A DNA stretch of 64,000 bases from Escherichia coli (GCF_009931435.1 NZ_CP043414.1), one strand, 5' to 3'; positions 40,622 to 61,361 are shown, counted from the first letter of the stretch. Numbers and translations: made by a program. The notes: generated by a model not told the origin, from the sequence alone.

Positions 40622-42286
40622 TTAAAACGTTTCCCAGTTCTCTCCGCTATCTGCCACTGCCACTTTGCGCGGCGCAGATGGCGTCACAGTTTTTACTACT
40701 GCCGATGCTTCGCGCTGGCGTTGCTGCTCTTGCTGAATCCGGAACACTGCCACAGCTTCGGTCAGGCGACTGGCCTGCTCCTCCAGCGCGGCGGCGGCAG
40801 CGGCAGATTCTTCCACCAGCGCAGCGTTCTGTTGGGTTACCCGGTCCATCTCAGCAACCGCTAAGCCAACCTGATCGATACCACGGCTCTGCTCATCAGA
40901 AGCAGAAGCAATTTCGCCCATAATGTCCGTCACGCGGGTCACAGCGCTGACAATCTCCGCCATTGTTTCCCCGGCGCTTTCGACCAGCGTAGAGCCAACA
41001 TCCACTTTCCCCACCGAGTCTTCAATCAGGCTTTTAATTTCGCGAGCCGCCTGGGCGCTACGCTGGGCCAGATTACGCACTTCTCCCGCAACCACCGCAA
41101 AACCGCGCCCTTGCTCACCCGCACGCGCTGCTTCAACCGCCGCGTTCAAAGCCAGAATATTGGTCTGGAAGGCAATGCCGTCAATTACGCTGATAATATC
41201 GGCGATTTTCTGCGAGCTGGTGGAGATATCGCGCATGGTCTGCACCACGTTATCCACCACTTTGCCGCCACGTTGCGCCGTTTCGGAAGCACTTAACGCC
41301 AGGTGGCTGGCCTGACGCGCATTTTCGGCGTTCTGCTTCACCGTTGCGGTCAGTTGCTCCATGCTGGCTGCCGTCTCTTCCAGCGAAGCGGCCTGTTGCT
41401 CGGTGCGCGAAGAGAGATCGTTATTGCCGGTGGCGATTTCGCTGGCACCGCTATAGATAGCATTGGCCCCGTTGCGCACATCACCGACGGTACGCATCAG
41501 CTCTCCCTGCATATGGCGCAAACTCTCTGCCAGTTGCCCCATCTCATTAGAACCATCCACCTCAATCGGTTTCACCAGATCGCCACCTGCAATATGACGA
41601 ATGCTGTCAATCAGGCGATTCATTGGCGCTACCAACGAGGCTTTAATACCGAACCAGACGGCGAAGATGACCGCCAGTACGACGATCATCACGCCCACCA
41701 GAATCCACATCGCCTGGCTGTAGGAGGCATTATTATCGCTGACGGCGATATCATAGAGCCGATCGTTTTGCTCCATGTAAGCCACATACTGCTTCTCGAA
41801 ACCGTCCTGATATCCCTGAGTCGGCTGATCAAAGAATTCGTTGATTTTGCCTGCACCTAACAGTTGGATCAGTTCCGCCAGCGCATTGTGATAAATATCG
41901 TAATTACGTTTGATCTCTGCCGCTGCGGCGGTGCTCTGACGCGGGTCACGCGGCAATGCTTCGTAATCCGCCCAGTTTTTTTCCGCCTGTTTCAGCGAAA
42001 TACTGGCACTCTGCATCAGCTCGGCAACGGTTGAACCGCTACCAATATTGTTCTGATCCATCATGTAGCGGATACCCGCGCGGTTGAGGGTGTTACGCGT
42101 CTGCAACAACGCGACCCAGCTGCCATTCAGCGTGGATTGCTGCTGGCGAATGGTTTGTAAAACAGTGAAATTTTCTTTGTCATTCTTTAAGGCATTAAAG
42201 AACAGACCGCCTGATGTCAGTTGTAAAAGGCCAAAAACGGCCAAAACCAGCAGTAAGCTGGTCACGATCTTGATACGTTTTAACAT
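40622..42286 (-). CDS. tsr: Serine chemoreceptor Tsr (methyl-accepting chemotaxis protein I)
   Basis: Start placed at [21 protein letters not shown]... (554 aa from this start); HAMP and methyl-accepting domains and the C-terminal NWETF pentapeptide. Confidence 0.95.
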
Positions 42287-42317
42287 GGTTTCTCTTTCCA
42301 CTAGACAGATACACTGG

Positions 42318-42344
42318 TTGTCGGCCTGGTGGTGGAAAACTTTA
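42318..42344 (-). promoter_or_regulatory. Candidate sigma-28 (FliA) promoter of tsr
   Basis: On the minus strand: TAAAGTTT, 11 nt, GCCGACAA, ending about 30 nt before the tsr ATG. Confidence 0.5.
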
Positions 42345-42425
42345 TGCTGTGGAAAAGCGTCGGCACTGCTTTTGTTGCAGCAAACTTGCGTTTTTTGTGA
42401 GGGTCACACTCTATAGCGGCAGTTT

Positions 42426-43331
42426 ATGGTACAAAGTATCAATCTTCTTCGAACCAGTGATACTCCTATGGCTTATAGCATCGATATCATCTCCTGCATT
42501 ACCGAACGATTTATGGCGTTAACAGCCACTGAAAAGCGTATCGCACAATTTATTCTTGATGACGTCTCTGCCGCAGTAGAGTTGCCAATTGCTGAGCTGG
42601 CACGGTTAACGCAAACCAGTCAGGCGTCGGTGACGCGTTTTGCCCGTGCACTGGGGTGCAAAGATGTCCGCGAGTTGAAAGTCAAACTGGCGCAGTCACT
42701 GGCTGTCGGGCAGCGGTTTATTCTCGATGTACCGGATCTTGACGGTGTTCAGGGGATCTACGAAGCGATTATTAGCGTGCTGGAAACGCATCGTCGTTCG
42801 CTGGATATGAATGCCATCAGCCAGGCTGTAAGCTGGTTAAGTCAGGCGCGGCAAATTCTTGCGTTAGGAACTGGCGGCGGTTCCACTATCTGTTCACAGG
42901 AGATTCAGTACCGTTTATTCCGTCTGGGGCTACCGGTGGTCAGTCAGAATGATGCCCTGATGATGAGAATGATGTGCTCGGCAGTGATGCCGCAGGATGT
43001 GGTGATTGTGCTGTCGCTGGGCGGTTATACACCGGAAATCATCGAAAGTGCGGCAATCGCCCGTCAGTATGGCGCGCGTGTTATTGCCATTACGCCAGCA
43101 CAAACACCGCTGGCGGAACAGGTGGATCTGGTATTGCCGTTACTGGTTCAGGAAAGTGATTACATCTTTAAGCCCACCCCTTCCCGCTACGCGATGTTAG
43201 CCATGGTCGATGTACTGGCAACAGAACTGGCAATGGCAAATAAAGCGCAGGCGAAAGATCGCCTGCGGCGGATAAAACTGGTGTTAGACAGCCACCGTGG
43301 GGGCGCTAACCGCCAGCCACTTGGCGATTAG
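42426..43331 (+). CDS. RpiR/MurR-family transcriptional regulator (HTH_6 + SIS domain)
   Basis: N-terminal HTH region (...LTATEKRIAQFILDDVSAAVELPIAELARLTQTSQASVTRFARALG...) and SIS motif ILALGTGGGSTICSQ; true start may be an internal Met. Confidence 0.7.
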   Translation: MVQSINLLRTSDTPMAYSIDIISCITERFMALTATEKRIAQFILDDVSAAVELPIAELARLTQTSQASVTRFARALGCKDVRELKVKLAQSLAVGQRFILDVPDLDGVQGIYEAIISVLETHRRSLDMNAISQAVSWLSQARQILALGTGGGSTICSQEIQYRLFRLGLPVVSQNDALMMRMMCSAVMPQDVVIVLSLGGYTPEIIESAAIARQYGARVIAITPAQTPLAEQVDLVLPLLVQESDYIFKPTPSRYAMLAMVDVLATELAMANKAQAKDRLRRIKLVLDSHRGGANRQPLGD

Positions 43332-43340
43332 CATTGTCGG

Positions 43341-44810
43341 TTATGCTTCTTCAGGTTTGGTGATCACGACACTCTGGTTTTCACGCTCATTGGTGATAAT
43401 AGCCAAAGCTTCTTCCCGGCTGACCTGACTTGCTGGCGTTACCAACGTCACCAGTACGCCAGCGACCAGGCTGCCCAGCACTGACGGAATACACGGGTTA
43501 CCCCAGTAAGCCAGCCAGTCGGCATTCATCAGCACCACAATTGACATCACCATACCGCTCACTAACGCCGCCAGCGCGCCCTGCCAGTTAAAGCGTAGCC
43601 AGAAGCGACCGAGAATCGAGCAGATAAACAGCCCGGACATCAGCATCGAAATCATTTTGGTAATGTAGCTGATGATGTCATTAGAGGTCAGAGCAAAGAC
43701 CAGCGCCAGGCCAATAACAAAGGTCAACATCCAGCGTGAGTAAGTAATGGCCTTGTCCTCCGGCGGCATTCTGCCGGTAATCATGGTGTAGACGTCGCGC
43801 ATCATAATCGCCACTGCCGCAATGGCATCAGAACTGGCAGAAGACATGGTGGCAGAAAGCCCGGCAATCAGCACCACCAGCCCAAGAATGGCAGGTAAGA
43901 AGCTGGTCGCGAACAAGAAGGCATAGTTACTGTTTTCCAGATTCGGGTTCATGGTGAACGCCGCCATGCCGATAATGGCAGGCAGAATCGAGAAGAACAG
44001 ATACAACACGCCAGTAATAACAAATGAACGCCGTACAGAGGGAACGTCTTTTCCCGAGTAAATACGCTGGCGATAAGATGGTGTGGCCAGTACGCCGACA
44101 CCAATAACCAGCGCCAGCGAAAGCGCAGGCAGCACGCCCATTTTATCAATCGCAAACAGGCTCATCGCTTTTGGGTCCATCGCCTGTTCAATCGCACTCC
44201 AGCCACCAACGTGAACAACGGCAAGAATAGCCATTAATATAAAGCCAAAGAACAGAATTAGGGCCTGAATAGTATCTGTCCACACTACCGCCGAATAACC
44301 GCCGATAATAACGTAAATCGCAAAAGCTAAGGCAATAATTAATTTTGCCACCGTAAGATCAATACCTGTCGCCCAGGCAAGATACATACTGCCACCTAAT
44401 ATATGCGCTCCCAGCCAGCCAATAGAGGCAATAAATATCATCAGGCCGACAATATTTTTAATTAAATGGCTGCCGCCAGTATAATAAGATATTTCTTCAC
44501 TCATGGTCATAAAACGTAATTTACGTACCGGTGCAAACAGCCACGCCACCAGTAATATACCTACGGCCCCACCGACGCCATAAAGCATTCCGGCCCAGCC
44601 ATTGCTGTAGCCAAAGCCCACTGCGCCCATACTGGAACCCGTGCCAACCATCGTGGCAACGGTTGACCCCAGCGTCAGAAACAGCGGCAGCGAACGCCCG
44701 CCCAACAGAAAATCTTCTCCGCTTTTCTGATTACGAGAAACAAACCAACCAAGCCAAATCATGGCGATGGCATAAATAATAAAGCCGACTAAAAAGATAT
44801 GACTGTTCAT
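43341..44810 (-). CDS. Sodium:solute symporter family (SSS) transporter
   Basis: 489 aa, about 13 predicted transmembrane segments; N-terminus ...FVSRNQKSGEDFLLGGRSLPLF... typical of PutP/PanF-type symporters. Confidence 0.7.
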   Translation of the reverse strand: MNSHIFLVGFIIYAIAMIWLGWFVSRNQKSGEDFLLGGRSLPLFLTLGSTVATMVGTGSSMGAVGFGYSNGWAGMLYGVGGAVGILLVAWLFAPVRKLRFMTMSEEISYYTGGSHLIKNIVGLMIFIASIGWLGAHILGGSMYLAWATGIDLTVAKLIIALAFAIYVIIGGYSAVVWTDTIQALILFFGFILMAILAVVHVGGWSAIEQAMDPKAMSLFAIDKMGVLPALSLALVIGVGVLATPSYRQRIYSGKDVPSVRRSFVITGVLYLFFSILPAIIGMAAFTMNPNLENSNYAFLFATSFLPAILGLVVLIAGLSATMSSASSDAIAAVAIMMRDVYTMITGRMPPEDKAITYSRWMLTFVIGLALVFALTSNDIISYITKMISMLMSGLFICSILGRFWLRFNWQGALAALVSGMVMSIVVLMNADWLAYWGNPCIPSVLGSLVAGVLVTLVTPASQVSREEALAIITNERENQSVVITKPEEA

Positions 44811-44912
44811 AATTCACATCCTGCCAGTAGAGAGAGAATAATGTAAGAGTTCCCGGAGTGCTGAATGTATTCAGCACTCAATTGCGGTCTGTTTTTTTAA
44901 TTCTTAAATTTA

Positions 44913-45308
44913 TTAGCGGGTCGCGTTATAACAGGTCACATCGACTTCGACTTTACAATCGACAACCAGATCAGCCACACAACAAATACGTGCAGGCGGA
45001 TTCTCGCCAAAAAATTCTCTGAATACTTTATTAAATGACTGGAAATAGCGGGCGTCGGTCAGGATCACTTTCACGTGAACCACATCCGCCAGGCTATAAC
45101 CGGCTTCAGTCATGATGTCGACACAGTTTTGGATCGCCAGTCGTGACTGTTCAACGATTCCGCCTTCTACCACTTCACCGTTTTTCATGGGTGTTTGCCC
45201 GGAGACGTACAGCCAGCCGCCCGCCTCAACCGCCCTGGCAAAAGGCAAATGCTGCCCGCCAGTGCCTGTTCCACCTTCCGTACCGTAACGTTTAATGCTC
45301 ATATTCAC
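44913..45308 (-). CDS. RidA/YjgF-family reactive-intermediate (enamine/imine) deaminase
   Basis: 131 aa with the YjgF fold signature (...AGYSLADVVHVKVILTDARYFQSFNKVFREFF...); starts 3 nt after the upstream deacylase stop. Confidence 0.7.
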   Translation of the reverse strand: MNMSIKRYGTEGGTGTGGQHLPFARAVEAGGWLYVSGQTPMKNGEVVEGGIVEQSRLAIQNCVDIMTEAGYSLADVVHVKVILTDARYFQSFNKVFREFFGENPPARICCVADLVVDCKVEVDVTCYNATR

Positions 45309-45311
45309 TCC

Positions 45312-46763
45312 TTAATGTGAGGTCTGCCGGCGCAGGAAGCGTCCCGCACGGCCTGTAATATGTTTATCGCGACCATAGCTCATAACGCCGTTCACCATCA
45401 CCGCCTCAATGCCATCTGCCGGGCGTTTGGGATCAGAAAAGCTGGCAACATCACGAATGGTTTGTGGATCGAACAACACCAGGTCCGCAAAATAACCGAC
45501 TTTCACCAGTCCACGCTGGGGCAGGCGAAAACGGCTGGCAGAAAGCCCGGTCATTTTGTGGATAGCCGTGGTCAGTGGGAATAAGCCTTCATCACGGCAA
45601 TAGTGGCCCAGCACACGAGGGAAGGCGCCCCATAAACGTGGATGCGGCATGGGATCATTGGGCAGGCCGTCAGAGCCAATCATACTGACCGGATAACTCA
45701 ACACTCGGCGGACGTCGCGCTCGTCCATGTTGTAATAGATAGCCCCGGCAGGCATTAGCAGCTTCGCGGCCTCCAGCATACTCATCTGCCAGTCGATGGC
45801 GATTTGCGCCAGTGTTTTCCCGGCCTGCTGCGGATGTGTTTGTGACCAGGTGATCATAATATCGAATTCGTCGGTGACTTGTTTGAGATCCAGCGTTGAA
45901 GAGCTGGCTGAGTAAGGGTAGACATCGCAGCCAATTTCCTGGTGTTGACGCATTTGGTCAAAAAAGGCCAACGTTTCTTTTGTCCGCCCCCAGTTTTTCG
46001 CCCCGGCGCATTTATGATGGGAAACCACGACAGGCACTTTGCCATGACGCCCAATACGAAACGCCTCATCCAGGGCATCGAGAATCGGTTCAAATTCAGA
46101 ACGCAGGTGGGTGGTATAAACGCCCTTCTCACCGGCTAATTCTTCCGCCAGCGCCATGACTTCTTCGGTAGTCGCCTGAAATGCTGTGGCATAGGCCAGC
46201 CCGGAACTTAACCCCAGCGCCCCCTGACTCAACGCCAGACGTAAGTCGGCGCGCATGGCGGCAATTTCATCCGCCGTCGCCGGGCGAAACAGGTCGTCCA
46301 TATGGTTATTACGCAGCGCCGTATGACCAATCAGCGTGCCAACGTTCAGTGACGGCCTGGCTGCTTCCACTGCCTGGGCATAGCTTTCAACGGTAGGATA
46401 AATAAAGTGCTCCGCTTCCCCCAACAGATTCATCGGGTCAGGAACTTCACCTTTCATTTTCGCCGACGCCGCACTGATCCCGCAGTTACCGACAATCACC
46501 GTAGTGATCCCCTGACTGATCTTTGGCAGATATTCCGGGATGCGAATAACGTTGATATCGTCATGGGTATGAACGTCGATAAACCCTGGTGCCAGCACCC
46601 GCCCTTCCCCGTCAATGACCTGCTGCGCCGTAGCGTTAAGCGCAGGGGCAATATCGACAATCCGATCACCTGTTATTGCCACGTCACCGCGAAATTCAGG
46701 GCCGCCGCTACCGTCGATAACGGTCACATTTTTGATTAACCAGTCAACCTGCATGTTCGTCAC
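45312..46763 (-). CDS. N-acyl-D-amino-acid deacylase (D-aminoacylase), amidohydrolase superfamily
   Basis: 483 aa; N-terminus VIDGSGGPEFRGDVAITGDRIVDIAP and metal-binding GFIDVHTHDD motif. Confidence 0.7.
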   Translation of the reverse strand: MTNMQVDWLIKNVTVIDGSGGPEFRGDVAITGDRIVDIAPALNATAQQVIDGEGRVLAPGFIDVHTHDDINVIRIPEYLPKISQGITTVIVGNCGISAASAKMKGEVPDPMNLLGEAEHFIYPTVESYAQAVEAARPSLNVGTLIGHTALRNNHMDDLFRPATADEIAAMRADLRLALSQGALGLSSGLAYATAFQATTEEVMALAEELAGEKGVYTTHLRSEFEPILDALDEAFRIGRHGKVPVVVSHHKCAGAKNWGRTKETLAFFDQMRQHQEIGCDVYPYSASSSTLDLKQVTDEFDIMITWSQTHPQQAGKTLAQIAIDWQMSMLEAAKLLMPAGAIYYNMDERDVRRVLSYPVSMIGSDGLPNDPMPHPRLWGAFPRVLGHYCRDEGLFPLTTAIHKMTGLSASRFRLPQRGLVKVGYFADLVLFDPQTIRDVASFSDPKRPADGIEAVMVNGVMSYGRDKHITGRAGRFLRRQTSH

Positions 46764-46954
46764 TCCATTTCTGCAATGGTGACAAGTTAACCATTTACAA
46801 GGACGAAAAACAGTGGAAAACTACGCAAAACCCAGATGATTTTCTGATACTTTTATTCATAAACTATAAGATAAATAAACTAAATATTTATATTTCATTT
46901 AGTTACAAATGATACTCACATCCGATACGGTGAAAAACTTAAAAGGTAAATGTT

Positions 46955-48175
46955 ATGAAATACCACTCAGAACCTCTGGTTCCCCATAAATCGGCCCTGA
47001 TGCAAATGCCCGCAAATCTCCTTGCCGAAGATGTCTGTTTACCTGCCGCGATCATTAAAAAGCAGGCCCTGGAGAACAACATTACGTGGATGCAGCGTTA
47101 TGCTGACGCGCGCGGCGTTTCGCTGGCACCGCACGGTAAAACCACCATGACGCCGTGGATTTTTCAGGCGCAGCAGGCAGCTGGTGCCTGGGCAATAGGT
47201 GTCGGTAGCGCATGGCAGGCTGGTGCGGCAATGGCGAGCGGTATTCAGCGAGTGCTGATGGTTAACCAGCTGGTCGGCAAGGCGAATATGCAGTTGATTG
47301 CCCAGTTGCAACGACATTACCCGACGGTCGATTTTATCTGCTGTATCGACAGCATTGAGAACGCCCGCGCTTTGTCTGCCTTTTTTGCCAGTCAGCAACA
47401 GACACTGAACGTGATGATTGAGTTGGGTGTCCCCGGCGGACGCTGTGGCTGCCGCTCAACGGATGCCGCACTGGCACTGGCTAAACAGGCGGCCCAATTA
47501 CCAGGGCTACGTCTGCGCGGGCTTGAGTTATATGAAGGTGTTTTACACGGTGACGATCCACAACCGCAGGTAGAAGCACTGCTGCGGGATGCCGCACAAC
47601 TGGCCTGTGATATGGCAAGTCTGGTTGATGGCGAATTTATTCTCACCGGAGCAGGCACGGTCTGGTATGACGTGGTGTGCAATATCTGGCTGGCGGCAGA
47701 AAAGCCTGATAACTGCCGCATTGTTATTCGCCCTGGCTGCTACATCACTCACGACACCGGGATCTACGACGCGGCACAACAACAGTTGCTTGCCCGCGAT
47801 CCTGTGGCCTGCGATCTGGCAGGCGATCTCACATCTGCGCTGGAACTGGTCGCCATGGTGCAATCGGTGCCGGAAGCTGATCGTGCGGTGGTAAATTTTG
47901 GTAAGCGTGATTGCGCCTTCGACGCCGGACTGCCGCAACCAGTCGCCCACTACCGCAACGGCAAATCACTGGCATTTGATCCACAGGCGATTCGCAGTAC
48001 AGGCATTATGGATCAGCACTGCATGTTGCAACTGTCAGCTAATAGCGACGTGCAAGTGGGGGATATTCTGGTGTTTGGCACATCGCATCCGTGCCTGACC
48101 TTCGACAAATGGAAAGCGTTGTTATTGACTGATGACGACTACAACGTACTGGCGGAATTAGACACTCTCTTCTAA
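46955..48175 (+). CDS. PLP-dependent alanine-racemase-fold enzyme (D-serine deaminase-like / D-threonine aldolase family)
   Basis: 406 aa; candidate PLP-lysine motif LAPHGKT near the N-terminus; divergent from the deacylase operon. Confidence 0.6.
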   Translation: MKYHSEPLVPHKSALMQMPANLLAEDVCLPAAIIKKQALENNITWMQRYADARGVSLAPHGKTTMTPWIFQAQQAAGAWAIGVGSAWQAGAAMASGIQRVLMVNQLVGKANMQLIAQLQRHYPTVDFICCIDSIENARALSAFFASQQQTLNVMIELGVPGGRCGCRSTDAALALAKQAAQLPGLRLRGLELYEGVLHGDDPQPQVEALLRDAAQLACDMASLVDGEFILTGAGTVWYDVVCNIWLAAEKPDNCRIVIRPGCYITHDTGIYDAAQQQLLARDPVACDLAGDLTSALELVAMVQSVPEADRAVVNFGKRDCAFDAGLPQPVAHYRNGKSLAFDPQAIRSTGIMDQHCMLQLSANSDVQVGDILVFGTSHPCLTFDKWKALLLTDDDYNVLAELDTLF

Positions 48176-48180
48176 GAATA

Positions 48181-48214
48181 CCCCTTCGGTTAATTATCGA
48201 AGGGGCATTTTTAT
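48181..48214 (+). terminator. Rho-independent terminator after the racemase-fold gene
   Basis: CCCCTTCG-GTTAATTAT-CGAAGGGG hairpin followed by CATTTTTATT. Confidence 0.65.
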
Positions 48215-48230
48215 TGTGATCTCAATCACA
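48215..48230. promoter_or_regulatory. CRP binding site upstream of btsT
   Basis: TGTGATCTCAATCACA, a perfect TGTGA-N6-TCACA. Confidence 0.55.
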
Positions 48231-48258
48231 TATCCACCCGACGAATAATTCTTGCCCA

Positions 48259-48286
48259 ACCGCTCACCGCCATTCCTGACCGCTTA
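48259..48286 (+). promoter_or_regulatory. Candidate BtsR (LytTR) direct-repeat binding site upstream of btsT
   Basis: ACCGCTCA, 12 nt, ACCGCTTA direct repeat, matching the ACC(G/A)CT(C/T)A motif I recall for the btsT (yjiY) promoter. Confidence 0.45.
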
Positions 48287-48442
48287 CGTCCCAAATATAA
48301 CCACTCAGTTATTTACCTTACTTTACGCGCGCGTAACTCTGGCAACATCACTGCAGGATAGCGGTCAATTTACCTCCTCAAACGCAACGCAAACCTAGAA
48401 CGGCTTCGGCCAACTATTAATCAATACATGCCAGGTTTTACT

Positions 48443-50593
48443 ATGGATACTAAAAAGATATTCAAGCACATACCCTGGGTGATTCTTGGAATCATCGGTG
48501 CATTCTGCCTCGCGGTAGTTGCATTACGTCGGGGGGAGCACGTCAGCGCCCTGTGGATCGTGGTCGCCTCTGTGTCGGTGTATCTGGTGGCTTATCGCTA
48601 CTACAGTCTGTACATCGCCCAGAAGGTGATGAAACTCGACCCCACGCGCGCGACGCCTGCGGTTATTAACAATGACGGTCTGAACTATGTTCCGACCAAC
48701 CGTTACGTGTTGTTTGGTCACCACTTCGCCGCTATCGCCGGTGCGGGTCCGCTGGTTGGTCCGGTTCTCGCCGCGCAGATGGGTTACCTGCCTGGCACAC
48801 TGTGGCTGCTGGCGGGGGTAGTGCTGGCCGGTGCGGTACAGGACTTTATGGTGCTGTTTATCTCTTCTCGCCGTAACGGCGCATCTCTCGGTGAGATGAT
48901 CAAAGAAGAGATGGGGCCAGTACCGGGGACTATCGCGCTGTTTGGCTGTTTCTTAATCATGATCATCATCCTCGCCGTTCTGGCGCTGATTGTGGTTAAA
49001 GCCCTGGCCGAAAGTCCGTGGGGGGTCTTCACCGTTTGCTCAACCGTACCGATTGCGCTGTTCATGGGTATCTACATGCGCTTTATCCGTCCGGGGCGTG
49101 TAGGTGAAGTCTCTGTTATTGGTATCGTGCTGCTGGTTGCCTCTATCTACTTCGGTGGCGTGATTGCTCACGATCCGTACTGGGGTCCGGCACTGACCTT
49201 TAAAGACACCACAATTACCTTCGCACTGATTGGCTATGCGTTTGTTTCCGCACTGCTGCCGGTGTGGCTGATCCTCGCACCGCGCGACTATCTGGCAACC
49301 TTCCTGAAAATCGGCGTTATCGTCGGCCTGGCGCTGGGTATCGTGGTGCTGAACCCGGAACTGAAAATGCCTGCGATGACCCAGTACATTGACGGTACTG
49401 GCCCGTTGTGGAAAGGCGCTCTGTTCCCGTTCCTGTTCATCACCATCGCCTGTGGTGCGGTATCTGGCTTCCACGCGCTGATCTCTTCCGGTACAACGCC
49501 GAAATTGCTGGCTAACGAAACCGACGCGCGTTTCATTGGCTACGGCGCAATGCTGATGGAGTCCTTCGTGGCGATTATGGCGCTGGTTGCTGCGTCCATC
49601 ATCGAACCGGGTCTTTACTTCGCGATGAATACCCCGCCTGCGGGCCTTGGCATCACCATGCCTAACCTGCATGAAATGGGTGGCGAGAACGCGCCGATCA
49701 TCATGGCGCAGCTGAAAGACGTTACCGCACACGCGGCAGCGACTGTCAGCTCCTGGGGCTTCGTGATTTCGCCAGAGCAGATCCTGCAAACCGCGAAAGA
49801 CATTGGTGAGCCTTCTGTCCTGAACCGTGCAGGTGGTGCGCCGACGCTGGCGGTAGGTATCGCTCACGTGTTCCACAAAGTGCTGCCGATGGCTGACATG
49901 GGCTTCTGGTATCACTTCGGTATTCTGTTCGAAGCCCTGTTCATCCTGACCGCGCTGGATGCGGGTACCCGTTCTGGCCGCTTTATGCTGCAAGACCTGC
50001 TGGGTAACTTCATCCCGTTCCTGAAAAAAACCGACTCTCTGGTTGCCGGCATCATCGGTACTGCGGGCTGTGTGGGTCTGTGGGGCTACCTGCTGTATCA
50101 GGGCGTGGTCGATCCGCTGGGCGGCGTTAAGAGCCTGTGGCCGCTGTTCGGTATCTCCAACCAGATGCTGGCAGCCGTAGCGCTGGTACTGGGCACCGTT
50201 GTGCTGATTAAGATGAAGCGCACCCAATACATCTGGGTGACTGTTGTTCCGGCTGTATGGCTGCTTATCTGCACCACCTGGGCGCTGGGCCTGAAACTGT
50301 TCAGCACCAACCCGCAGATGGAAGGCTTCTTCTACATGGCAAGCCAGTACAAAGAGAAGATTGCTAACGGTACTGACCTGACGGCACAGCAGATTGCCAA
50401 CATGAACCACATCGTTGTGAACAACTACACCAACGCGGGTCTGAGTATTCTGTTCCTGATTGTGGTGTACAGCATCATCTTCTACGGTTTCAAAACCTGG
50501 CTGAAGGTGCGTAACAGCGACAAACGTACTGACAAAGAAACTCCGTACGTTCCAATCCCGGAAGGCGGCGTGAAGATCTCTTCGCACCACTAA
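48443..50593 (+). CDS. btsT: Pyruvate/H+ symporter BtsT (YjiY), CstA family
   Basis: Start placed at MDTKKIFKHIPWVILGIIGAF... (716 aa). Confidence 0.9.
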   Translation: MDTKKIFKHIPWVILGIIGAFCLAVVALRRGEHVSALWIVVASVSVYLVAYRYYSLYIAQKVMKLDPTRATPAVINNDGLNYVPTNRYVLFGHHFAAIAGAGPLVGPVLAAQMGYLPGTLWLLAGVVLAGAVQDFMVLFISSRRNGASLGEMIKEEMGPVPGTIALFGCFLIMIIILAVLALIVVKALAESPWGVFTVCSTVPIALFMGIYMRFIRPGRVGEVSVIGIVLLVASIYFGGVIAHDPYWGPALTFKDTTITFALIGYAFVSALLPVWLILAPRDYLATFLKIGVIVGLALGIVVLNPELKMPAMTQYIDGTGPLWKGALFPFLFITIACGAVSGFHALISSGTTPKLLANETDARFIGYGAMLMESFVAIMALVAASIIEPGLYFAMNTPPAGLGITMPNLHEMGGENAPIIMAQLKDVTAHAAATVSSWGFVISPEQILQTAKDIGEPSVLNRAGGAPTLAVGIAHVFHKVLPMADMGFWYHFGILFEALFILTALDAGTRSGRFMLQDLLGNFIPFLKKTDSLVAGIIGTAGCVGLWGYLLYQGVVDPLGGVKSLWPLFGISNQMLAAVALVLGTVVLIKMKRTQYIWVTVVPAVWLLICTTWALGLKLFSTNPQMEGFFYMASQYKEKIANGTDLTAQQIANMNHIVVNNYTNAGLSILFLIVVYSIIFYGFKTWLKVRNSDKRTDKETPYVPIPEGGVKISSHH

Positions 50594-51878: not shown

Positions 51879-52628
51879 TTATGAAACATCACGAAATACA
51901 CAGGTAAGTTCTTTAGGACTTGCTTTCCATATATGGTCAAAGCCACTCGACAGCATGACTTCTATTTTTCCTTCCGGACTTTCAATTAGTAAATAGCGAT
52001 CATGGCAGTTTGTATATTTGGGATTTGTAGTGATTTGCACACTCCATTCAGGATGGATACAATGAACAAAATTACTATTTATTTTACTTCCGTTTTGGAC
52101 TGCAGCGACACCTACTGCGATTTCTGAAAATTCAATAACAAGCTCTTTTCTAGGTAGTACGGAATGAAATAAGCTGCATGTATTCTCCCAATTCTGTGCA
52201 AAGTAATTATCGCATATAATTACTTTTTTTGCATTGCAACATAGCATTTCCAGATACTTTTTTAAATATATTCTATTATCTGTAGGGCTTAATGTAACGG
52301 TAACTTGATTATTAACCATACCTTTTTTATAATGTACAAAGGGAAGTGATAAATTATCATTCTCAGTAAGGATTATTTTCAACAACGATTTAGATGCTAA
52401 AGTAACAAGATCATCATCACTTTCAGGCTGACTTGCTAACATAGATAAATATTGTCGATATTCTAACTCCGGCATCTTCAATCCTAAATTTCTTGCCTCA
52501 ATCCATTGCCTTTTGTTAGTTAAATAAGGTAGTACTAGTTTTTTATGTAATCTCTTCACCTTATTCTTATCATCCATATTTTCATATGCAACTAATAAAG
52601 ATGTATCAAGAACCATTTGATAAGACAT
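51879..52628 (-). CDS. Hypothetical protein, no recognisable domain; third gene of the accessory operon (gene C)
   Basis: 249-aa ORF; ATG 4 nt after the ATPase stop with a GAGGT Shine-Dalgarno; AT-rich coding sequence. Confidence 0.6.
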   Translation of the reverse strand: MSYQMVLDTSLLVAYENMDDKNKVKRLHKKLVLPYLTNKRQWIEARNLGLKMPELEYRQYLSMLASQPESDDDLVTLASKSLLKIILTENDNLSLPFVHYKKGMVNNQVTVTLSPTDNRIYLKKYLEMLCCNAKKVIICDNYFAQNWENTCSLFHSVLPRKELVIEFSEIAVGVAAVQNGSKINSNFVHCIHPEWSVQITTNPKYTNCHDRYLLIESPEGKIEVMLSSGFDHIWKASPKELTCVFRDVS

Positions 52629-52632
52629 TTCT

Positions 52633-53682
52633 TTACCTCATCTTCATCAAATCATCTAAGGTTGCATCAAAAAAACCTAAAGGGAATCCCGTAACATTCT
52701 CTTGCAGATCGGTAAATTTCCCACCTTCATTAACTCTCATCGAGATAAAATCTTTATCCACATCAGGTTTATAATGTACAGAAATATCCTCAGAAGTTAT
52801 AACATCTTCATAAACCAAATACGCAAGTTTATTGATTAAATGTTCACAATGCGTTTCTACAATAATCTGGATACCCTTACTTGCTACAAATGCTAAAAAA
52901 ATTGCCAAATGAGACTGCGCTTTCGGATGCAATTGAATTTCGGGATTTTCTAGCAAAATAAGATCGCCTTTTTTTGCCATCAAACAAATAATCAAAACCT
53001 TTGCAATATAACTCATCCCAGCCCCAAGATTAAGAGGAGAAACATTTCCTTCAAGCTCTTTTAAGGTAAAAGCGACCTTAATCTGGTCACCAACTTTTTC
53101 AGTAACTAATTCAGACGTCGTTCCTGTAATCAGTTTCAACCAATAAGATAATTGATATGCAAGTGTTGTAGATTCGTGAACTTTCACCAGATATTCAGGT
53201 ACTGGCAAATGTTTCATTTTATCAAATGTTGAAAACAAGAATTCTCCTGCAACACCTACTCGACGTTCTGCGGTGGGCACAAATTCTTGTGCCCCCAAGC
53301 GGTTGGCATTCAGATAGAGCAACTCAGGTTCACTACCAGGCACTCTTGGCTCGTATTGATATCCCAGACGACTATCAATTTCGATATTTTCTGAGTTGAG
53401 CGTTAACGAATGAGAATTTTTTTCTGTATCCTGGACTGTTATAACAATAGATTTTGCGTTATTTTTTTTATTTCTAATAACAGGAAAATCAGCTAGAAAT
53501 CGGATAACTTCTTCCATACTATACTGATTAACAGAAGCGCTATTTTTAATTAGTAACATCAATGCCTGAATAACGCTGGATTTACCAGAAGAGTTAGTTC
53601 CAGTTAAAATGGTCAGTGGTGATAACACCAGACTTGTTGAGCCTAAACTTTTAAATCCTTGAATGTTAATATTTGTAAGCAT
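52633..53682 (-). CDS. ABC-type/AAA_21-like ATPase, second gene of the accessory operon (gene B)
   Basis: 349 aa; N-terminal MLTNINIQGFKSLGS... with Walker A GTNSSGKSS; C-terminal Walker B and H-loop (DLILLENPEIQLHP...IIVETHCEHL); start overlaps the upstream gene by 17 nt. Confidence 0.75.
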   Translation of the reverse strand: MLTNINIQGFKSLGSTSLVLSPLTILTGTNSSGKSSVIQALMLLIKNSASVNQYSMEEVIRFLADFPVIRNKKNNAKSIVITVQDTEKNSHSLTLNSENIEIDSRLGYQYEPRVPGSEPELLYLNANRLGAQEFVPTAERRVGVAGEFLFSTFDKMKHLPVPEYLVKVHESTTLAYQLSYWLKLITGTTSELVTEKVGDQIKVAFTLKELEGNVSPLNLGAGMSYIAKVLIICLMAKKGDLILLENPEIQLHPKAQSHLAIFLAFVASKGIQIIVETHCEHLINKLAYLVYEDVITSEDISVHYKPDVDKDFISMRVNEGGKFTDLQENVTGFPLGFFDATLDDLMKMR

Positions 53683-54796
53683 TTTTAATCCTTTCCATTA
53701 TTTCCTTCGCAAAATCAAAACGCATATTTACATATTGTGTTGTATCAATTGCACCAGAAAAAATACCAATCTCATCAAAATTATACTTGTATTGTTCAAT
53801 AAGCTGTTTTAATTCAATATTTTTTGATAAAAATTCAAAACTTATCTGACTGAATACCATAACTAACACTTCGAATAATCCCATATTCACTGGTCGCCTT
53901 TTAGCACCTGATTTTGTTGAAAATCTAAATGCTTCTGAACCCAACGCTTTATAGACATTAGTCATACCAGTTATACAAGCATCTTCAACTTCTTCCAGTA
54001 ACTCATCATCAGCTTTTGTATTAATGAATTTCATCGCAGATGCTAAAAAAGCATCAATATCAGACCTAAATTCAACACCTGGCATTTGATTTGTTACAAG
54101 CAAATAAAATCCTACGAACCGCAAAACCAGATATCTGTCTCGCATACGCTCAGATTTTACGCCATTACCTGTTGCAAGCCTGAAAGACTCGTGTTCAGCG
54201 AGATCCTTAATTAACTTTGTGGCCTTGCCTTGATAAAGAGCATGCCGCATTTCCTGTTTATTTAGATTAATACCACTTCGATTTACACGCTCAAAAATAT
54301 TAAATTTCACATATTCAGGTGTTGGGGGTTGAATCACATAAGAATGTAACTGGCAATCTTCAAGCTTTGCTTGTAATAATGGAGGAATATCAGAAAATTT
54401 TTTTCCTCTCAAGTCAGGCAACATAGATAAATCAGTTAAAGAAAATTCATTGTTAACATAGCGTTTCAATGCAGATATTCGTTGTTTGCCATCAATGATT
54501 TGCCTGACACCATTTTCATCCTCAAAAAGATAAATTAATGGAATAGGAATCCCCATTAAAATAGATTCAATTAATTCTGACTGGTGTTTTCTATCCCAGA
54601 CAAGTTTACGCTGAAAATCTGGAGCAAGAACCAGTTGCCCACGAGCTTCGCGACGGAGTAATTCGAAAACACTGGATTGCTCTTTTGCAATTCGAACCTC
54701 AGTATCTGTCCCCATTTGATGCGGATGAGATGTTAACTCAAGCTCTTCTTGATCTTCGAGTTCAATGCTGTCGTTTTCTACATCCGCATTACTCAT
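53666..54796 (-). CDS. DUF262 (ParB/sulfiredoxin-like NTPase, GmrS-type) domain protein, first gene of the accessory operon (gene A)
   Basis: 376 aa; acidic N-terminal tail then DUF262 motifs PDFQRKLVWDRKHQSELIESILMGIPIPLIYLF...IIDGKQRISAL and FNIFERVNRSGINLNKQEM; no DUF1524/HNH motif found. Confidence 0.75.
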   Translation of the reverse strand: MSNADVENDSIELEDQEELELTSHPHQMGTDTEVRIAKEQSSVFELLRREARGQLVLAPDFQRKLVWDRKHQSELIESILMGIPIPLIYLFEDENGVRQIIDGKQRISALKRYVNNEFSLTDLSMLPDLRGKKFSDIPPLLQAKLEDCQLHSYVIQPPTPEYVKFNIFERVNRSGINLNKQEMRHALYQGKATKLIKDLAEHESFRLATGNGVKSERMRDRYLVLRFVGFYLLVTNQMPGVEFRSDIDAFLASAMKFINTKADDELLEEVEDACITGMTNVYKALGSEAFRFSTKSGAKRRPVNMGLFEVLVMVFSQISFEFLSKNIELKQLIEQYKYNFDEIGIFSGAIDTTQYVNMRFDFAKEIMERIKNAYKY

Positions 54797-55036: not shown

Positions 55037-57469
55037 ATGGCGGAACTGAACCTAAGTAACCTGACGGAAGCAGACATCATTACCAAATGCGTTATGCCAG
55101 CCATTCTCAATGCAGGCTGGGACAACACAACGCAAATCAGACAGGAGGTCAAACTCCGGGACGGTAAAGTCATCGTACGTGGTAAAGTTGCGGCACGCAG
55201 AACGGTAAAATCTGCTGACATCGTGCTGTATCACAAACCAGGCATTCCCTTAGCCGTGATTGAAGCAAAAGCCAACAAACATGAAATTGGCAAAGGGATG
55301 CAACAGGGCATTGAATATGCGCGCCTGCTGGACGTTCCTTTTGTTTTTGCCACCAACGGGGATGGCTTTATCTTCCGCGATGCCACCGCAGCCGAAGGTG
55401 AATGCCTTGAAAAGCAAATAACGCTGGATGACTTCCCCTCCCCCGCTGAACTCTGGCAAAAATTCTGCCTCTGGAAAGGATACACACAAGCTCAGCTTCC
55501 GGTGATTACTCAGGACTATTACGACGATGGCAGCGGTAAATCGCCACGTTATTACCAGCTTCAGGCAATCAACAAAACCATTGAAGCCGTCTCCAACGGG
55601 CAAAACCGCGTTCTGTTGGTCATGGCGACCGGAACAGGGAAAACCTATACCGCATTCCAGATCATCTGGCGCCTGTGGAAATCAAAAAATAAAAAACGCA
55701 TTCTGTTCCTTGCCGATCGCAACATTCTGGTCGACCAAACCAAAAATAATGATTTCCAGCCATTTGGTACGGCAATGACCAAAGTCAGCGGACGCACCAT
55801 TGATCCCGCTTATGAAATTCACCTCGCGCTCTATCAGGCTATAACTGGCCCGGAGGAAGACCAAAAAGCGTTTAAACAAGTCGCACCAGATTTCTTCGAT
55901 CTGATAGTCATCGACGAATGCCATCGCGGCAGCGCATCCGAAGACAGCGCCTGGCGAGAGATCCTTGATTATTTCAGTTCCGCCACCCAAATTGGCTTAA
56001 CCGCCACGCCAAAAGAGACGCATGAAGTCTCCAGCACGGATTACTTCGGCGATCCGGTTTACGTCTACTCGCTAAAAGAAGGGATCGAAGACGGCTTCCT
56101 CGCCCCTTATAAAGTTGTCCGTGTTGATATTGATGTTGATCTGCAAGGCTGGCGCCCAACCAAAGGGCAAACTGACTTAAACGGCGAAGTGATCGACGAT
56201 CGTATCTATAACCAGAAAGATTTCGATCGCACGATGGTAATCGACGAACGCACAGAACTGGTTGCCAGAACCATTACCGACTACCTCAAGCGCACCAATC
56301 CGATGGATAAAACCATCGTCTTCTGTAACGACATCGATCATGCAGAACGTATGCGCCGCGCCCTGGTTAATCTCAACTCGGAGCAGGTGAAAAAGAACGA
56401 CAAATACGTCATGAAAATCACCGGCGATGATGAAATTGGCAAAGCTCAGTTGGATAACTTCATCAACCCGAAAAAACCGTACCCGGTTATCGCGACCACT
56501 TCAGAGCTGATGACCACCGGTGTGGATGCTAAAACCTGCAAACTGGTAGTACTGGACCAGAACATCCAGTCGATGACCAAATTCAAGCAGATTATCGGTC
56601 GTGGTACACGCATCGACGAACGTTACGGCAAACTCTGGTTTACCATCCTCGACTTTAAAAAAGCCACCGAACTGTTTGCCGATGAGCGTTTCGATGGCAT
56701 TCCCGAAAAAGTCATGGATACCACACCAGAGGATATCACCGATCCAGAATCTGATTTTGAAGAGAAACTCGAAGAAATCAGCGAACATGACGACGAACAG
56801 GTAACGGGCGTTGATGAACCGCCTGCGCCACCATACCAGGTTACCGATACCGATGATGTCGGCCCACTTCCGGAAGAAGACGAGAAGAAAATCCGCAAGT
56901 TTCACGTCAACGGTGTCGCGGTGGGCGTTATTGCGCAGCGTGTTCAGTATTACGATGCCGACGGTAAACTGGTTACCGAATCTTTTAAAGATTACACCCG
57001 CAAAACACTGCTCAAAGAATATGCCTCGCTGGATGACTTTACCCGCAAGTGGCAGGACGCCGATCGCAAAGAAGCGATCATTCACGAGCTGGAGCAACAG
57101 GGGATCATCTGGGAAGTACTGGCAGAAGAAGTCGGTAAAGATCTCGACCCGTTCGACATGCTTTGCCACGTAGTGTATGGTCAGCCGCCGTTAACCCGCA
57201 AAGAGCGCGCCGAGAACGTGCGCAAGCGGAACTACTTCACAAAATACTCTGAAGCAGCGCAAGCCGTGCTCGATAATCTGCTGGATAAATACGCCGATGC
57301 GGGCGTACAGGAGATCGAAAGTATTCAGGTGCTGAAACTTAAACCATTCGACAGCATGGGCACTTTACCGGAGATTATTAAAACCGGATTTGGCGACCGT
57401 AACGGGTATAATCAGGCGCTCAGCGAGCTGGAAAACGAAATCTACCAATTACCGCCCCGCTCTGCTTAA
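55037..57469 (+). CDS. hsdR: Type I restriction enzyme R subunit HsdR (short, Type IB-like form)
   Basis: 810 aa; N-terminal PD-(D/E)xK nuclease region and SF2 helicase motifs [26 protein letters not shown]. Confidence 0.9.
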
Positions 57470-57483
57470 CAACTCTCTTTTGC

Positions 57484-57522
57484 GCCTTCTGCAACCATCA
57501 TGTTGCAGAAGGCCTTGTTTTT
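57484..57522 (+). terminator. Rho-independent terminator between hsdR and hsdM
   Basis: Perfect 12-bp stem GCCTTCTGCAAC / GTTGCAGAAGGC with a 6-nt loop, followed by CTTGTTTTTC. Confidence 0.55.
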
Positions 57523-57535
57523 CATGGAATACAAC

Positions 57536-59005
57536 ATGTCTATCAGCTCAGTAATCAAATCATTACAAGATATTATGCGCAAAGATGCCGGTGTGGATGG
57601 CGATGCGCAGCGTCTCGGTCAGCTCTCCTGGCTGCTGTTTTTGAAAATCTTCGATGCCCAGGAAGAGGCGCTGGAACTGGAGCAGGATAACTATCAATAT
57701 CCGATCCCACAGCGTTATTTGTGGCGCAGTTGGGCCGCCAACGCGCAGGGCATTACCGGTGATTCCCTGCTGGAATTCGTTAATGATGATCTGTTCCCGG
57801 CGTTGAAAAACCTCACTGCGCCTATCGATAAAAACCCACGCGGCTACGTGGTGAAGCAGGCGTTCAGCGATGCCTATAACTATATGAAAAACGGTACGCT
57901 ACTGCGTCAGGTGATCAACAAGCTGAACGAAATTGACTTTACCAGCGCCAGCGAACGCCATCTGTTTGGTGATATTTACGAACAGATCCTTAAAGATCTG
58001 CAATCTGCGGGCAATGCTGGCGAATTCTATACTCCACGCGCCGTCACTCGCTTTATGGTGGATCGCGTTGATCCGAAACTCGGCGAATCCATTATGGACC
58101 CGGCCTGCGGTACGGGCGGTTTTCTTGCCTGCGCATTTGATCATGTAAAGAACAAATACGTGAAGAGCGTCGCCGATCATCAGACTCTGCAACAACAGAT
58201 CCACGGTGTCGAGAAAAAACAGCTTCCGCACCTGCTGGCGACCACCAATATGCTGCTGCACGGCATTGAAGTACCGGTACAAATTCGTCACGACAACACC
58301 CTGAATAAACCGCTTTCCTCCTGGGATGAGCAACTGGATGTGATTGTTACCAACCCGCCATTTGGTGGCACGGAAGAAGACGGTATTGAGAAGAACTTTC
58401 CGGCAGAGATGCAAACCCGCGAAACGGCGGATCTGTTCCTGCAACTGATTGTGGAAGTACTGGCGAAAAACGGTCGCGCGGCGGTGGTATTGCCGGATGG
58501 CACACTATTTGGCGAAGGCGTTAAAACCAAAATCAAAAAACTGCTTACCGAAGAGTGCAACCTGCATACCATCGTGCGTTTACCGAATGGGGTGTTTAAC
58601 CCCTATACCGGCATTAAAACCAACCTGTTGTTCTTTACCAAAGGTCAGCCAACCAAAGAGATTTGGTTCTATGAGCATCCGTATCCGGCGGGCGTGAAAA
58701 ATTACAGTAAAACCAAGCCGATGAAGTTTGAAGAGTTTCAGGCGGAGATCGACTGGTGGGGGAACGAGGCCGATGGTTTTGCCAGCCGCGTCGAGAATGA
58801 GCAGGCGTGGAAAGTCAGCATTGATGACGTGATTGCGCGTAACTTCAATCTGGATATTAAAAACCCACATCAGGCGGAAACCGTTAGCCATGATCCGGAC
58901 GAGCTGTTAGCGCAGTATGCAAAGCAGCAGGCGGAGATCCAGACGCTGCGTAATCAACTGCGCGATATTCTTGGCGCTGCGCTGTCTGGCAAGGAGGTTA
59001 ACTGA
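57536..59005 (+). CDS. hsdM: Type I restriction-modification N6-adenine DNA methyltransferase HsdM
   Basis: SAM motif DPACGTGGFL and catalytic NPPFGG; start placed at MSISSVIKSLQDI... after the hairpin (the track ORF starts at 57500, inside the hairpin). Confidence 0.9.
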   Translation: MSISSVIKSLQDIMRKDAGVDGDAQRLGQLSWLLFLKIFDAQEEALELEQDNYQYPIPQRYLWRSWAANAQGITGDSLLEFVNDDLFPALKNLTAPIDKNPRGYVVKQAFSDAYNYMKNGTLLRQVINKLNEIDFTSASERHLFGDIYEQILKDLQSAGNAGEFYTPRAVTRFMVDRVDPKLGESIMDPACGTGGFLACAFDHVKNKYVKSVADHQTLQQQIHGVEKKQLPHLLATTNMLLHGIEVPVQIRHDNTLNKPLSSWDEQLDVIVTNPPFGGTEEDGIEKNFPAEMQTRETADLFLQLIVEVLAKNGRAAVVLPDGTLFGEGVKTKIKKLLTEECNLHTIVRLPNGVFNPYTGIKTNLLFFTKGQPTKEIWFYEHPYPAGVKNYSKTKPMKFEEFQAEIDWWGNEADGFASRVENEQAWKVSIDDVIARNFNLDIKNPHQAETVSHDPDELLAQYAKQQAEIQTLRNQLRDILGAALSGKEVN

Positions 59006-60753: not shown

Positions 60754-60775
60754 TTTTCTCGCCCTCATAAAACCA

Positions 60776-60801
60776 ATAAAGCGGCTAAATAGCCGCTTTA
60801 T
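60776..60801. terminator. Hairpin downstream of hsdS
   Basis: ATAAAGCGGCT-AAAT-AGCCGCTTTAT palindrome 23 nt after the hsdS stop; no strong U-tract. Confidence 0.35.
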
Positions 60802-60880
60802 TCACATCACCAAAAATTATATTTTACGCTAATTTTCATCTTATTTTCATTAATTTTTAGCTGGACTTTCCCCATATTTA

Positions 60881-60896
60881 CTGATGATATGTCCAG
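60881..60896. promoter_or_regulatory. LexA (SOS) box in the symE promoter
   Basis: CTGATGATATGTCCAG, a CTG-N10-CAG box (with flanks TACTG...CAGGT) about 80 bp upstream of the symE ATG. Confidence 0.5.
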
Positions 60897-60914
60897 GTAT
60901 TTAGCGCGGTGCGA

Positions 60915-61000
60915 ATGTGCGCCAACACACCCGCACCGCTCATCACAATCCCTATTTCACGAGAATAGTAATCATGACTGACACGCATTCTATTGCACAA
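60915..61000 (-). ncRNA. symR: Expected position of the SymR antisense sRNA (boundaries not determinable from sequence)
   Basis: Placed only by analogy: in K-12 SymR is encoded antisense to the symE 5' UTR and start codon; no independent sequence evidence. Confidence 0.25.
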
Positions 61001-61315: not shown

Positions 61316-61322
61316 TACATTG

Positions 61323-61354: not shown

Positions 61355-61361
61355 CGCCACG

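Follow-up and report, generated by a model that had tools for sequence, protein, structure and literature searches.

The closest described counterpart of the locus analyzed here is the ong cluster of Pseudoalteromonas prydzensis ACAM 620 (Jiang et al. 2022, Nat Commun 13:5899, PMC9537276). Its eight genes encode a TonB-dependent receptor, the PLP deaminase OngC, the MurR/RpiR homologue OngR, the D-aminoacylase-like OngB, the RidA protein OngD, the SSS symporter OngIT, KdgK and the GH20 enzyme OngA. The substrate, 2-acetamido-2-deoxy-D-gluconate (GlcNAc1A), is the C1-oxidised sugar left at chitin chain ends by lytic polysaccharide monooxygenases (LPMOs). In P. prydzensis, OngIT is needed for uptake, and its deletion abolishes growth on GlcNAc1A. 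OngB then deacetylates GlcNAc1A to D-glucosaminate, OngC converts this compound to 2-keto-3-deoxygluconate (KDG) and ammonia, and KdgK phosphorylates KDG. OngR is a repressor whose effect is relieved by GlcNAc1A, and OngD is essential for growth on GlcNAc1A, its role being left unresolved by the authors (PMC9537276). Here we describe a block of five genes at positions 42426-48175 of a 64,000-nucleotide stretch of Escherichia coli DNA (GCF_009931435.1, NZ_CP043414.1; the whole stretch is referred to below as the window), whose products probably form the cytoplasmic core of a pathway of the ong type, acting on an N-acetyl-D-hexosaminic acid.

An open reading frame (ORF) search of the window revealed five long, intact ORFs in this interval, in the order and on the strands given by the initial annotation. 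The first, ongR (42468..43331, plus strand), encodes a MurR/RpiR-family regulator of 287 amino acids (aa) with a helix-turn-helix and a SIS domain. It is convergent with ongIT (43341..44810, minus strand), from which it is separated by 9 nt. The latter encodes a 489-aa sodium/solute symporter of the SSS family and is the last gene of a minus-strand operon, ongB-ongD-ongIT, with intergenic gaps of 9 and 102 nt. The first gene of this operon, ongB (45312..46754, minus strand), encodes a 480-aa subtype-V amidohydrolase with a D-aminoacylase fold, predicted to be an N-acetyl-hexosaminate deacetylase, and ongD (44913..45302, minus strand) encodes a RidA-family enamine/imine deaminase of 129 aa. Divergent from ongB is ongC (46955..48175, plus strand), whose 406-aa product is a fold-type-III pyridoxal phosphate (PLP) enzyme with a D-serine-dehydratase domain and a predicted hexosaminate ammonia-lyase (dehydratase/deaminase). 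The operon of deacylase, RidA protein and symporter, with the PLP gene divergent, had been recognized in the initial annotation, and NCBIfam and Pfam agree with the five protein families named there. Its coordinates also stood, apart from three start codons, which were moved on the basis of RefSeq annotation and orthologue alignment from 42426 to 42468 (ongR), from 45308 to 45302 (ongD) and from 46763 to 46754 (ongB). In the three E. coli alleles compared all ORFs are intact, and the differences fall mainly at synonymous codons (synonymous:nonsynonymous 44:8 and 47:12), so these are working genes rather than chance ORFs. The five genes are under purifying selection.

The encoded proteins have one-to-one, full-length counterparts in an ong cluster. 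A protein 100% identical to P. prydzensis OngB (PpOngB) was found only on a 2.7-kb contig; hence a locus of Pseudoalteromonas sp. ZZD1 (L084), which encodes an OngB 92% identical to PpOngB and is devoid of kdgK, was used as a stand-in reference. BLASTP comparison with this locus gave identities of 44% for OngR, 58% for OngIT (over 473 aa), 84% for OngD, 54% for OngB and 45% for OngC. Relatives were drawn from the best 80 loci of a genome-collection scan, P. prydzensis and Klebsiella not being among them; in this set, two Vibrio ong clusters (L058 and L067) and 10 enterobacterial species representatives likewise have these five genes together. No homologues of the GH20 enzyme OngA or of KdgK were found within the 64-kb window, where ongR abuts ongIT, and no TonB-dependent receptor gene is present among the genes annotated around the island in locus L001.

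The block is already on record. In Supplementary Data 3 of Jiang et al., 13 E. coli strains, E. fergusonii ECD227 and one Escherichia sp. appear as "ong cluster +", with ongC, ongR, ongB, ongD and ongIT present and "-" entered for lpmo, ongOT-1, kdgK and ongA (PMC9537276). Exactly this five-gene set was therefore already catalogued in E. coli in 2022, and strain E308 of that list is among the island-positive genomes found in this study (H58). Other island-positive strains are KV7 and TW10598. A literature search for this block in E. coli yielded Jiang et al. 2022 alone.

The identity of the deacylase could be examined closely, as the structure of PpOngB with bound GlcNAc1A has been described (Wang et al. 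2025, JBC, PMC12017989). The metal ligands of PpOngB are Cys97, His222 and His252, and the catalytic residue is Asp368. The acetamido and carboxylate groups are anchored by Leu116, Tyr194, Lys254, Tyr285, Ser291, Leu370 and Arg379, the sugar hydroxyls are bound by Ser290, Ser292, Glu226 and Gln298, and Ala193, Ala256 and Gly348 are small pocket residues. In true D-aminoacylases, Ser292 is replaced by Thr and Gln298 by Leu or Arg, and mutation of either residue cripples PpOngB. PpOngB, PaOngB and PfOngB are all active on GlcNAc1A and inactive on N-acetyl-D-amino acids, PfOngB being still GlcNAc1A-specific at 57% identity to PpOngB (PMC12017989).

The E. coli protein aligns with PpOngB (PDB 9kb1) without gaps (562 bits, 54% identity); its scores with the classical D-aminoacylases are 461 bits (1m7j, AfDam) and 393 bits (3gip, BbDam). 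Identical residues occupy 17 of the 18 key positions of PpOngB. The metal ligands and the catalytic Asp are kept (C94/H219/H249/D365, in the numbering of the 483-aa ORF), as are six of the seven residues of the hydroxyl-binding and pocket set (Ser290, Ser292, Gln298, Glu226, Ala193, Ala256 and Gly348). The sole change is Gly348 to Asn, and Asn occupies this position in every Enterobacterales and Paraburkholderia sequence examined, that of E. coli included. The hydrophobic side-chain pocket of AfDam is made up of Phe191, Met254, Leu298 and Met346, with Thr where PpOngB has Ser292; the corresponding residues of the E. coli protein are Ala, Ala, Gln, Asn and Ser, respectively. Since 17 of 18 residues are retained, and since PpOngB and its homologues are inactive on N-acetyl-D-amino acids, the E. 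coli deacylase is, as judged from its sequence signature, an OngB and not an AfDam-type D-aminoacylase. The initial annotation gave the substrate of the block as unknown, and this can now be amended, as the demonstrated substrate of the family is GlcNAc1A. Its more general proposal of a D-amino-acid derivative holds in the formal sense that an amino-sugar acid of this kind is an N-acetyl-D-amino acid; an ordinary D-amino acid is probably not involved, PpOngB being inactive on those derivatives.

A closer homologue, KleDacyl of Klebsiella pneumoniae (PDB 9G5M/9GV8), is 84% identical to E. coli OngB (935 bits to 9g5m) and was characterized as a "D-acylase" for biocatalysis, with no mention of GlcNAc1A or the ong context (Martinez-Rodriguez & Gavira 2025, PMC12149444). 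It is strictly D-specific and hydrolyses N-acetyl-D-Met, N-acetyl-D-Phe and N-acetyl-D,L-Trp, though weakly, with Km values of 19-32 mM. For N-acetyl-D-Met, the Km is 32 mM and kcat/Km is 2.8 per min per mM, i.e. ~0.05 per mM per s (PMC12149444), which is ~30 times below the value of 1.6 per mM per s reported for PpOngB on GlcNAc1A (PMC12017989). The OngB substrate signature (Ser, Ser, Gln, Glu) is complete in KleDacyl, which shares with E. coli OngB the Gln at the specificity position (Gln292 in KleDacyl numbering). KleDacyl is probably an OngB-type N-acetyl-hexosaminate deacetylase, and its D-acylase activity a side reaction.

The remaining proteins of the block are consistent with the same pathway. 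OngC contains the Pfam domains PF01168 (Ala_racemase_N) and PF14031 (D-ser_dehydrat) and scores 361 bits with PDB 3gwq. The lysine of its PHGKT motif and its C-terminal SHPC motif are invariant in E. coli, Leclercia, Vibrio and Pseudoalteromonas; in D-serine dehydratases with this fold, the former is the PLP lysine and the latter supplies zinc ligands by which the beta-hydroxyl is held. Such motifs fit an eliminating enzyme, not an aldolase. OngD matches TIGR00004, and its "PAR" arginine aligns with the one found in RidA structures. The 2-aminoacrylate-type enamine/imine that a PLP elimination leaves behind is hydrolysed by RidA proteins, and hydrolysis of the intermediate of the PLP elimination would be the natural role of OngD. 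OngIT matches TIGR00813 (sss) and is 68-69% identical to the symporter of the Vibrio ong clusters, and OngR matches the NCBIfam HexR/MurR/RpiR models, best of all HexR. The NCBIfam assignments of OngB and OngC are to the amidohydrolase and fold-type-III PLP families, and their RefSeq names are generic ("N-acyl-D-amino-acid deacylase family" and "amino acid deaminase", respectively).

In the pathway that we propose for E. coli, the free N-acetyl sugar acid (a 2-acetamido-2-deoxy-D-aldonate) would be imported by OngIT, a Na+ symporter, and its acetyl group would be removed by OngB, acting as a mononuclear Cys/His/His metal amidohydrolase, to yield D-glucosaminate and acetate. OngC would then eliminate the C3 hydroxyl in a PLP-dependent reaction, and the resulting enamine/imine would be hydrolysed, faster in the presence of OngD, to KDG and ammonia. 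The keto-deoxy product would be handed to KdgK and Eda of the core genome, giving pyruvate and glyceraldehyde-3-phosphate; the core genes kdgK/eda and dgoK/dgoA presumably lie elsewhere in the E. coli genome. OngR would keep the divergent promoters repressed as long as neither the substrate nor a downstream metabolite is available. The order of uptake, deacylation of an N-acyl-D-alpha-amino acid, PLP elimination and RidA step had been foreseen in the initial annotation and agrees with the experiments on the homologous ong cluster, of whose P. prydzensis proteins the E. coli ones would be the functional counterparts. Without an LPMO, a GH20 OngA or a TonB-dependent receptor, E. coli would only scavenge the monomer and not degrade oxidised chitin. 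One may speculate that the monomer is supplied by chitin degraders in the gut or the environment, or by enzymatic or chemical oxidation of amino sugars.

Several points weigh against this assignment. A KDG kinase like that encoded in the reference cluster is missing, so the last steps must rest on core genes outside the window, and E. coli has no LPMO to supply the substrate. KleDacyl, at 84% identity, is active, albeit weakly, on N-acetyl-D-Met, N-acetyl-D-Phe and N-acetyl-D,L-Trp (PMC12149444). Moreover, the closest relatives (Leclercia, Cedecea, Rahnella, Buttiauxella and others) extend the operon with proteins of the DgoK and DgoA types, not with KdgK and Eda, and the only changed pocket residue of OngB, Gly348 to Asn, tracks this difference.

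The last two observations bear on the epimer that is used. The substrate of the enterobacterial clusters might be the C4 epimer N-acetyl-D-galactosaminate, i.e. C1-oxidised N-acetylgalactosamine (GalNAc), or both epimers might be accepted, a possibility that we regard as real but doubtful. The same chemistry would then lead to 2-keto-3-deoxy-D-galactonate, handled by the DgoK/DgoA paralogues of the operon in the relatives and by core dgoK/dgoA in E. coli. Of 13 enterobacterial species representatives, 8 have genes for a DGOK-family kinase and a DgoA-type aldolase within the cluster or beside it, as do 6 Paraburkholderia (loci of this type: L004 (13476-14973), L005, L007-L011, L015, L056, L062, L071, L077, L079 and L080). 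In Enterobacterales the two genes come immediately after ongIT, with overlapping reading frames in Leclercia. The kinase scores 302 bits with PF05035 and 312 bits with Klebsiella DgoK (3r1x), while the aldolase scores 289 bits with the E. coli 2-keto-3-deoxy-6-phosphogalactonate (KDPGal) aldolase (2v81) and 302 bits with NF006600 (cut-off 207), and retains the AVGGV motif. At OngB position 348, the 14 DGOK-type loci without exception have Asn, and each of the four loci that encode a PfkB-type KdgK has Gly or Cys; the sequences with Asn348 do not form one clade in a neighbour-joining tree calculated without support values. The PfkB-type KdgK is encoded in the Vibrio, Andreprevotia and Pseudomonas entomophila loci, accompanied in Vibrio by Eda. 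A stereospecific KDPGal aldolase would be useless for KDG, as established for DgoA and Eda. The galactonate-type kinase and aldolase of the relatives point to a 2-keto-3-deoxy-galactonate product, which would make N-acetyl-D-galactosaminate the substrate.

However, Glu226, which binds the C4 hydroxyl in PpOngB, and the other sugar-binding residues are unchanged, and the same cluster type occurs in LPMO-bearing Serratia and Klebsiella, which suits chitin-derived GlcNAc1A. In addition, the DgoK/DgoA paralogues are missing from E. coli, Franconibacter and Shimwellia. The inducer of core dgoKA is D-galactonate and that of the KdgR regulon is KDG, so the loss of the paralogues would be easier to tolerate if the product were KDG. 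Our search of the literature on galactosaminate or N-acetylgalactosaminic acid catabolism revealed nothing relevant. We put forward only tentatively that the enterobacterial ong branch, the E. coli block included, is specialised for, or extended to, N-acetyl-D-galactosaminate. If true, gut Enterobacteriaceae would possess a hitherto undescribed pathway for the catabolism of an oxidised host-glycan sugar, GalNAc being the mucin core sugar. The galacto-epimer question is the only part of the present finding that could be new.

It seems improbable that the block serves to catabolise ordinary D-amino acids in N-acylated form (e.g. N-acetyl-D-Met, -D-Phe, -D-Ser or -D-Thr), with the PLP enzyme acting as a D-Ser/D-Thr dehydratase. 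The RefSeq gene names suggest such a function, PpOngC deaminates D-Ser and D-Thr too (PMC9537276), and KleDacyl hydrolyses N-acetyl-D-Met, -D-Phe and -D,L-Trp with strict D-specificity (PMC12149444). Yet the Km and kcat/Km values cited above show that KleDacyl is a weak enzyme on these compounds, in E. coli the pocket residues of true D-aminoacylases are replaced by the OngB set, and the three OngB enzymes assayed are inactive on N-acetyl-D-amino acids (PMC12017989). A dehydratase could not act on D-Met or D-Phe, so for these substrates the deacylase and the PLP enzyme would form no pathway. A sugar-like ligand is suggested instead by the RpiR/SIS regulator and by the grouping of the symporter with carriers of sugars and sialic acid.

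Very unlikely is the view of the block as a decaying remnant of a larger cluster, deprived of its kinase and aldolase and thus incomplete as a pathway in E. coli: relatives do have seven genes at the same tsr-linked site, only 9 nt separate ongR from ongIT, and the tsr-btsT site is highly variable among strains, but the five ORFs are intact in three E. coli alleles with synonymous changes dominating, the five-gene form is also found in Franconibacter and Shimwellia, the promoter blocks (see below) are conserved, and the core KdgK/Eda and DgoK/DgoA cover the missing steps.

The block assigned here to the ong family is flanked on the left by tsr (40622-42301, minus strand), with lgoT beyond it, and on the right by btsT (48428-50593, plus strand), in the order btsT-yjiX-yjiA; these are the same neighbours as in annotated E. 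coli genomes. The statement in the initial annotation that the block is absent from K-12 and that tsr and btsT are adjacent there was correct: in NEB5-alpha (L002) tsr adjoins btsT with a 377-nt spacer, and the K-12 derivatives NEB5-alpha and MC4100 match the island region only over the last ~170 nt upstream of btsT. Junction alignment showed that ~5.87 kb of DNA absent from K-12 (~42347..48213) stands in place of ~90 nt of K-12-specific tsr-btsT spacer. A megablast search, an approach already suggested in the initial annotation, found the island in 194 of 5,426 complete E. coli genomes (3.6%), of which 193 carry at least 80% of it. The copies match at 95-99% identity and all are chromosomal, with none on plasmids.

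At least four states of the tsr-btsT interval (window 42302-48427; compared with L002, L003 and L085) could be distinguished in E. coli. It is empty in the K-12 type; in the second state it contains the hpa (4-hydroxyphenylacetate) cluster, with hpaB and a reductase gene directly before btsT; in the third it contains the ong block alone, the right junction of the window being common to 159 genomes; and in the fourth the ong block is accompanied by a hydroxyproline catabolic cluster of ~10 kb. The genes of the latter encode a 4-hydroxyproline epimerase, FAD/2Fe-2S oxidoreductases, a DHDPS-family protein, an aldehyde dehydrogenase, an APC permease and an AraC regulator. The gene order in Leclercia adecarboxylata is hpaE-hpaG, ongC, ongB-D-IT-kinase-aldolase, ongR, tsr, lgoT, so linkage to tsr is old in Enterobacteriaceae. 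The differences between E. coli lineages probably stem from loss and recombination rather than from a mobile element that inserted here. The reading as a mobile genomic island was rejected: the repeat search and the annotation revealed no flanking direct repeats, att site, integrase, transposase, insertion sequence or tRNA gene at the block, and its G+C content (46-56%) resembles that of the flanks. At this variable position of the chromosome, the block behaves like one cassette among several alternatives.

Two copies of a 21-nt repeat in opposite orientation (inverted repeat pair I3 of the repeat search) were found in the non-coding DNA, and we propose that they represent the OngR operator. 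The first candidate (46845..46865, TGATACTTTTATTCATAAACT) is located in the ongB/ongC divergent region, and its 15-nt core (46845-46859) is invariant in 11 enterobacterial genera or species. The second copy (42421..42441) lies 27 nt upstream of the ongR start and overlaps the upstream ATG; its reverse complement, TGATAC-TTT-GTACCA-TAAACT, is a near-palindrome. This ongR-side copy was found only in E. coli loci, and no match with up to 5 mismatches was detected in other genera. Two more conserved non-coding blocks, with the reverse complements TTTTGCGTAGTTTTCCACTGTTTTT and CTTGTAAATGGTTAACTT, are located upstream of ongB at 46784..46830. In the alignment of window positions 46784-46865 (A3), the three blocks TGAATAAAAGTATCA, TTTTGCGTAGTTTTCCACTGTTTTT and CTTGTAAATGGTTAACTT are nearly invariant in 11 Enterobacterales genera or species, and only TGAATAAAAGTATCA has a partner upstream of ongR. 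TTTTGCGTAGTTTTCCACTGTTTTT and CTTGTAAATGGTTAACTT may be promoter or activator sites. A promoter scan found 7 sites, against 7.0 expected from shuffled sequence, and so carries no information.

The right edge of the block is an intrinsic-terminator-like hairpin (48181..48215, plus strand) that begins 6 nt past the ongC stop codon and consists of a 10-bp stem with 6 G-C pairs, followed by the T-run CATTTTTATT. A similar hairpin sits after hpaC in strains with the hpa cluster at the tsr-btsT site. A permissive scan of 42200-48500 for Rfam families gave no match.

Beyond yjiA, the window contains two further groups of genes. Three genes of low G+C content (31-38%) directly after yjiA (51879-54796, minus strand) match NsnC, NsnB and NsnA of a candidate anti-phage system in PADLOC (238, 263 and 368 bits, respectively), while NCBIfam gives no specific family. 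They are followed by an EcoAI-family type I restriction-modification region (55037-63110), with hsdR at 55037-57469, hsdM at 57500-59005 and hsdS at 59005-60753. After hsdS, a 582-aa protein matching the PADLOC Orf5/HEC-06 models is encoded at 61362-63110 (minus strand). This region looks like the E. coli "immigration control region".

The assignment gives a specific, testable function to generically annotated genes carried by ~4% of E. coli genomes. Some gut and poultry E. coli, including enterotoxigenic O6:H16 strains, may on this view be able to scavenge oxidised amino sugars that are freed from chitin by other microbes or formed by sugar oxidation. Current knowledge is not overturned; a publication of 2022 already reported the pathway and its occurrence in E. 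coli. The DgoK/DgoA observation raises a concrete question, namely which epimer the enterobacterial clusters process.

Among known systems that act on related compounds, the dga operon of Salmonella degrades D-glucosaminate taken up by a phosphotransferase system; the ammonia-lyase DgaE acts on the 6-phosphate through a PLP elimination to give an intermediate of the 2-keto-3-deoxy-6-phosphogluconate type, and the operon also encodes the aldolase DgaF. Unlike the ong block, it phosphorylates first and uses unrelated enzymes, and it is not known to include a deacetylase, so the N-acetylated acid would not be handled. The classical D-aminoacylases AfDam (1M7J) and BbDam (3GIP; an N-acyl-D-glutamate deacylase) have a different side-chain pocket and no GlcNAc1A activity, whereas E. 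coli OngB has the OngB-type pocket.

The ong cluster of P. prydzensis comprises the same five families, with identities of 44-84% and with the substrate-binding signature of OngB kept, and in both cases the regulator is a MurR/RpiR homologue. The E. coli block differs in having no TonB-dependent receptor, GH20 OngA, cluster-encoded KdgK or LPMO, all of which belong to the P. prydzensis pathway, and the hosts are a gut bacterium and a marine chitin degrader, respectively. The ong module is assembled differently between lineages: in E. coli ongR stands alone, ongB-D-IT form an operon and ongC is divergent, while P. prydzensis has ongCRBD and ongIT-kdgK-ongA. In most Pseudomonas species (Pseudomonas loci among L016-L082) OngR and OngB homologues are encoded side by side, with no OngC, OngD or OngIT homologue found in the 10-kb flanks, and Enterobacter sp. 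Ag1, Cedecea neteri and RIT693 (L012, L013 and L025) have the order C-B-D-R without the symporter. The ong-like clusters of other Enterobacterales (Leclercia, Klebsiella, Cedecea, Rahnella, Buttiauxella and Serratia; Jiang et al., Supplementary Data 3 and 4) are the nearest to the E. coli block. Their proteins are 73-96% identical to those of E. coli, the order C, B D T ... R is the same, the promoter-region blocks are conserved, and the Leclercia cluster likewise adjoins tsr and lgoT. Most of them carry genes for a DGOK-family kinase and a DgoA-type aldolase between ongIT and ongR, and it is the absence of both that sets E. coli, Franconibacter and Shimwellia apart.

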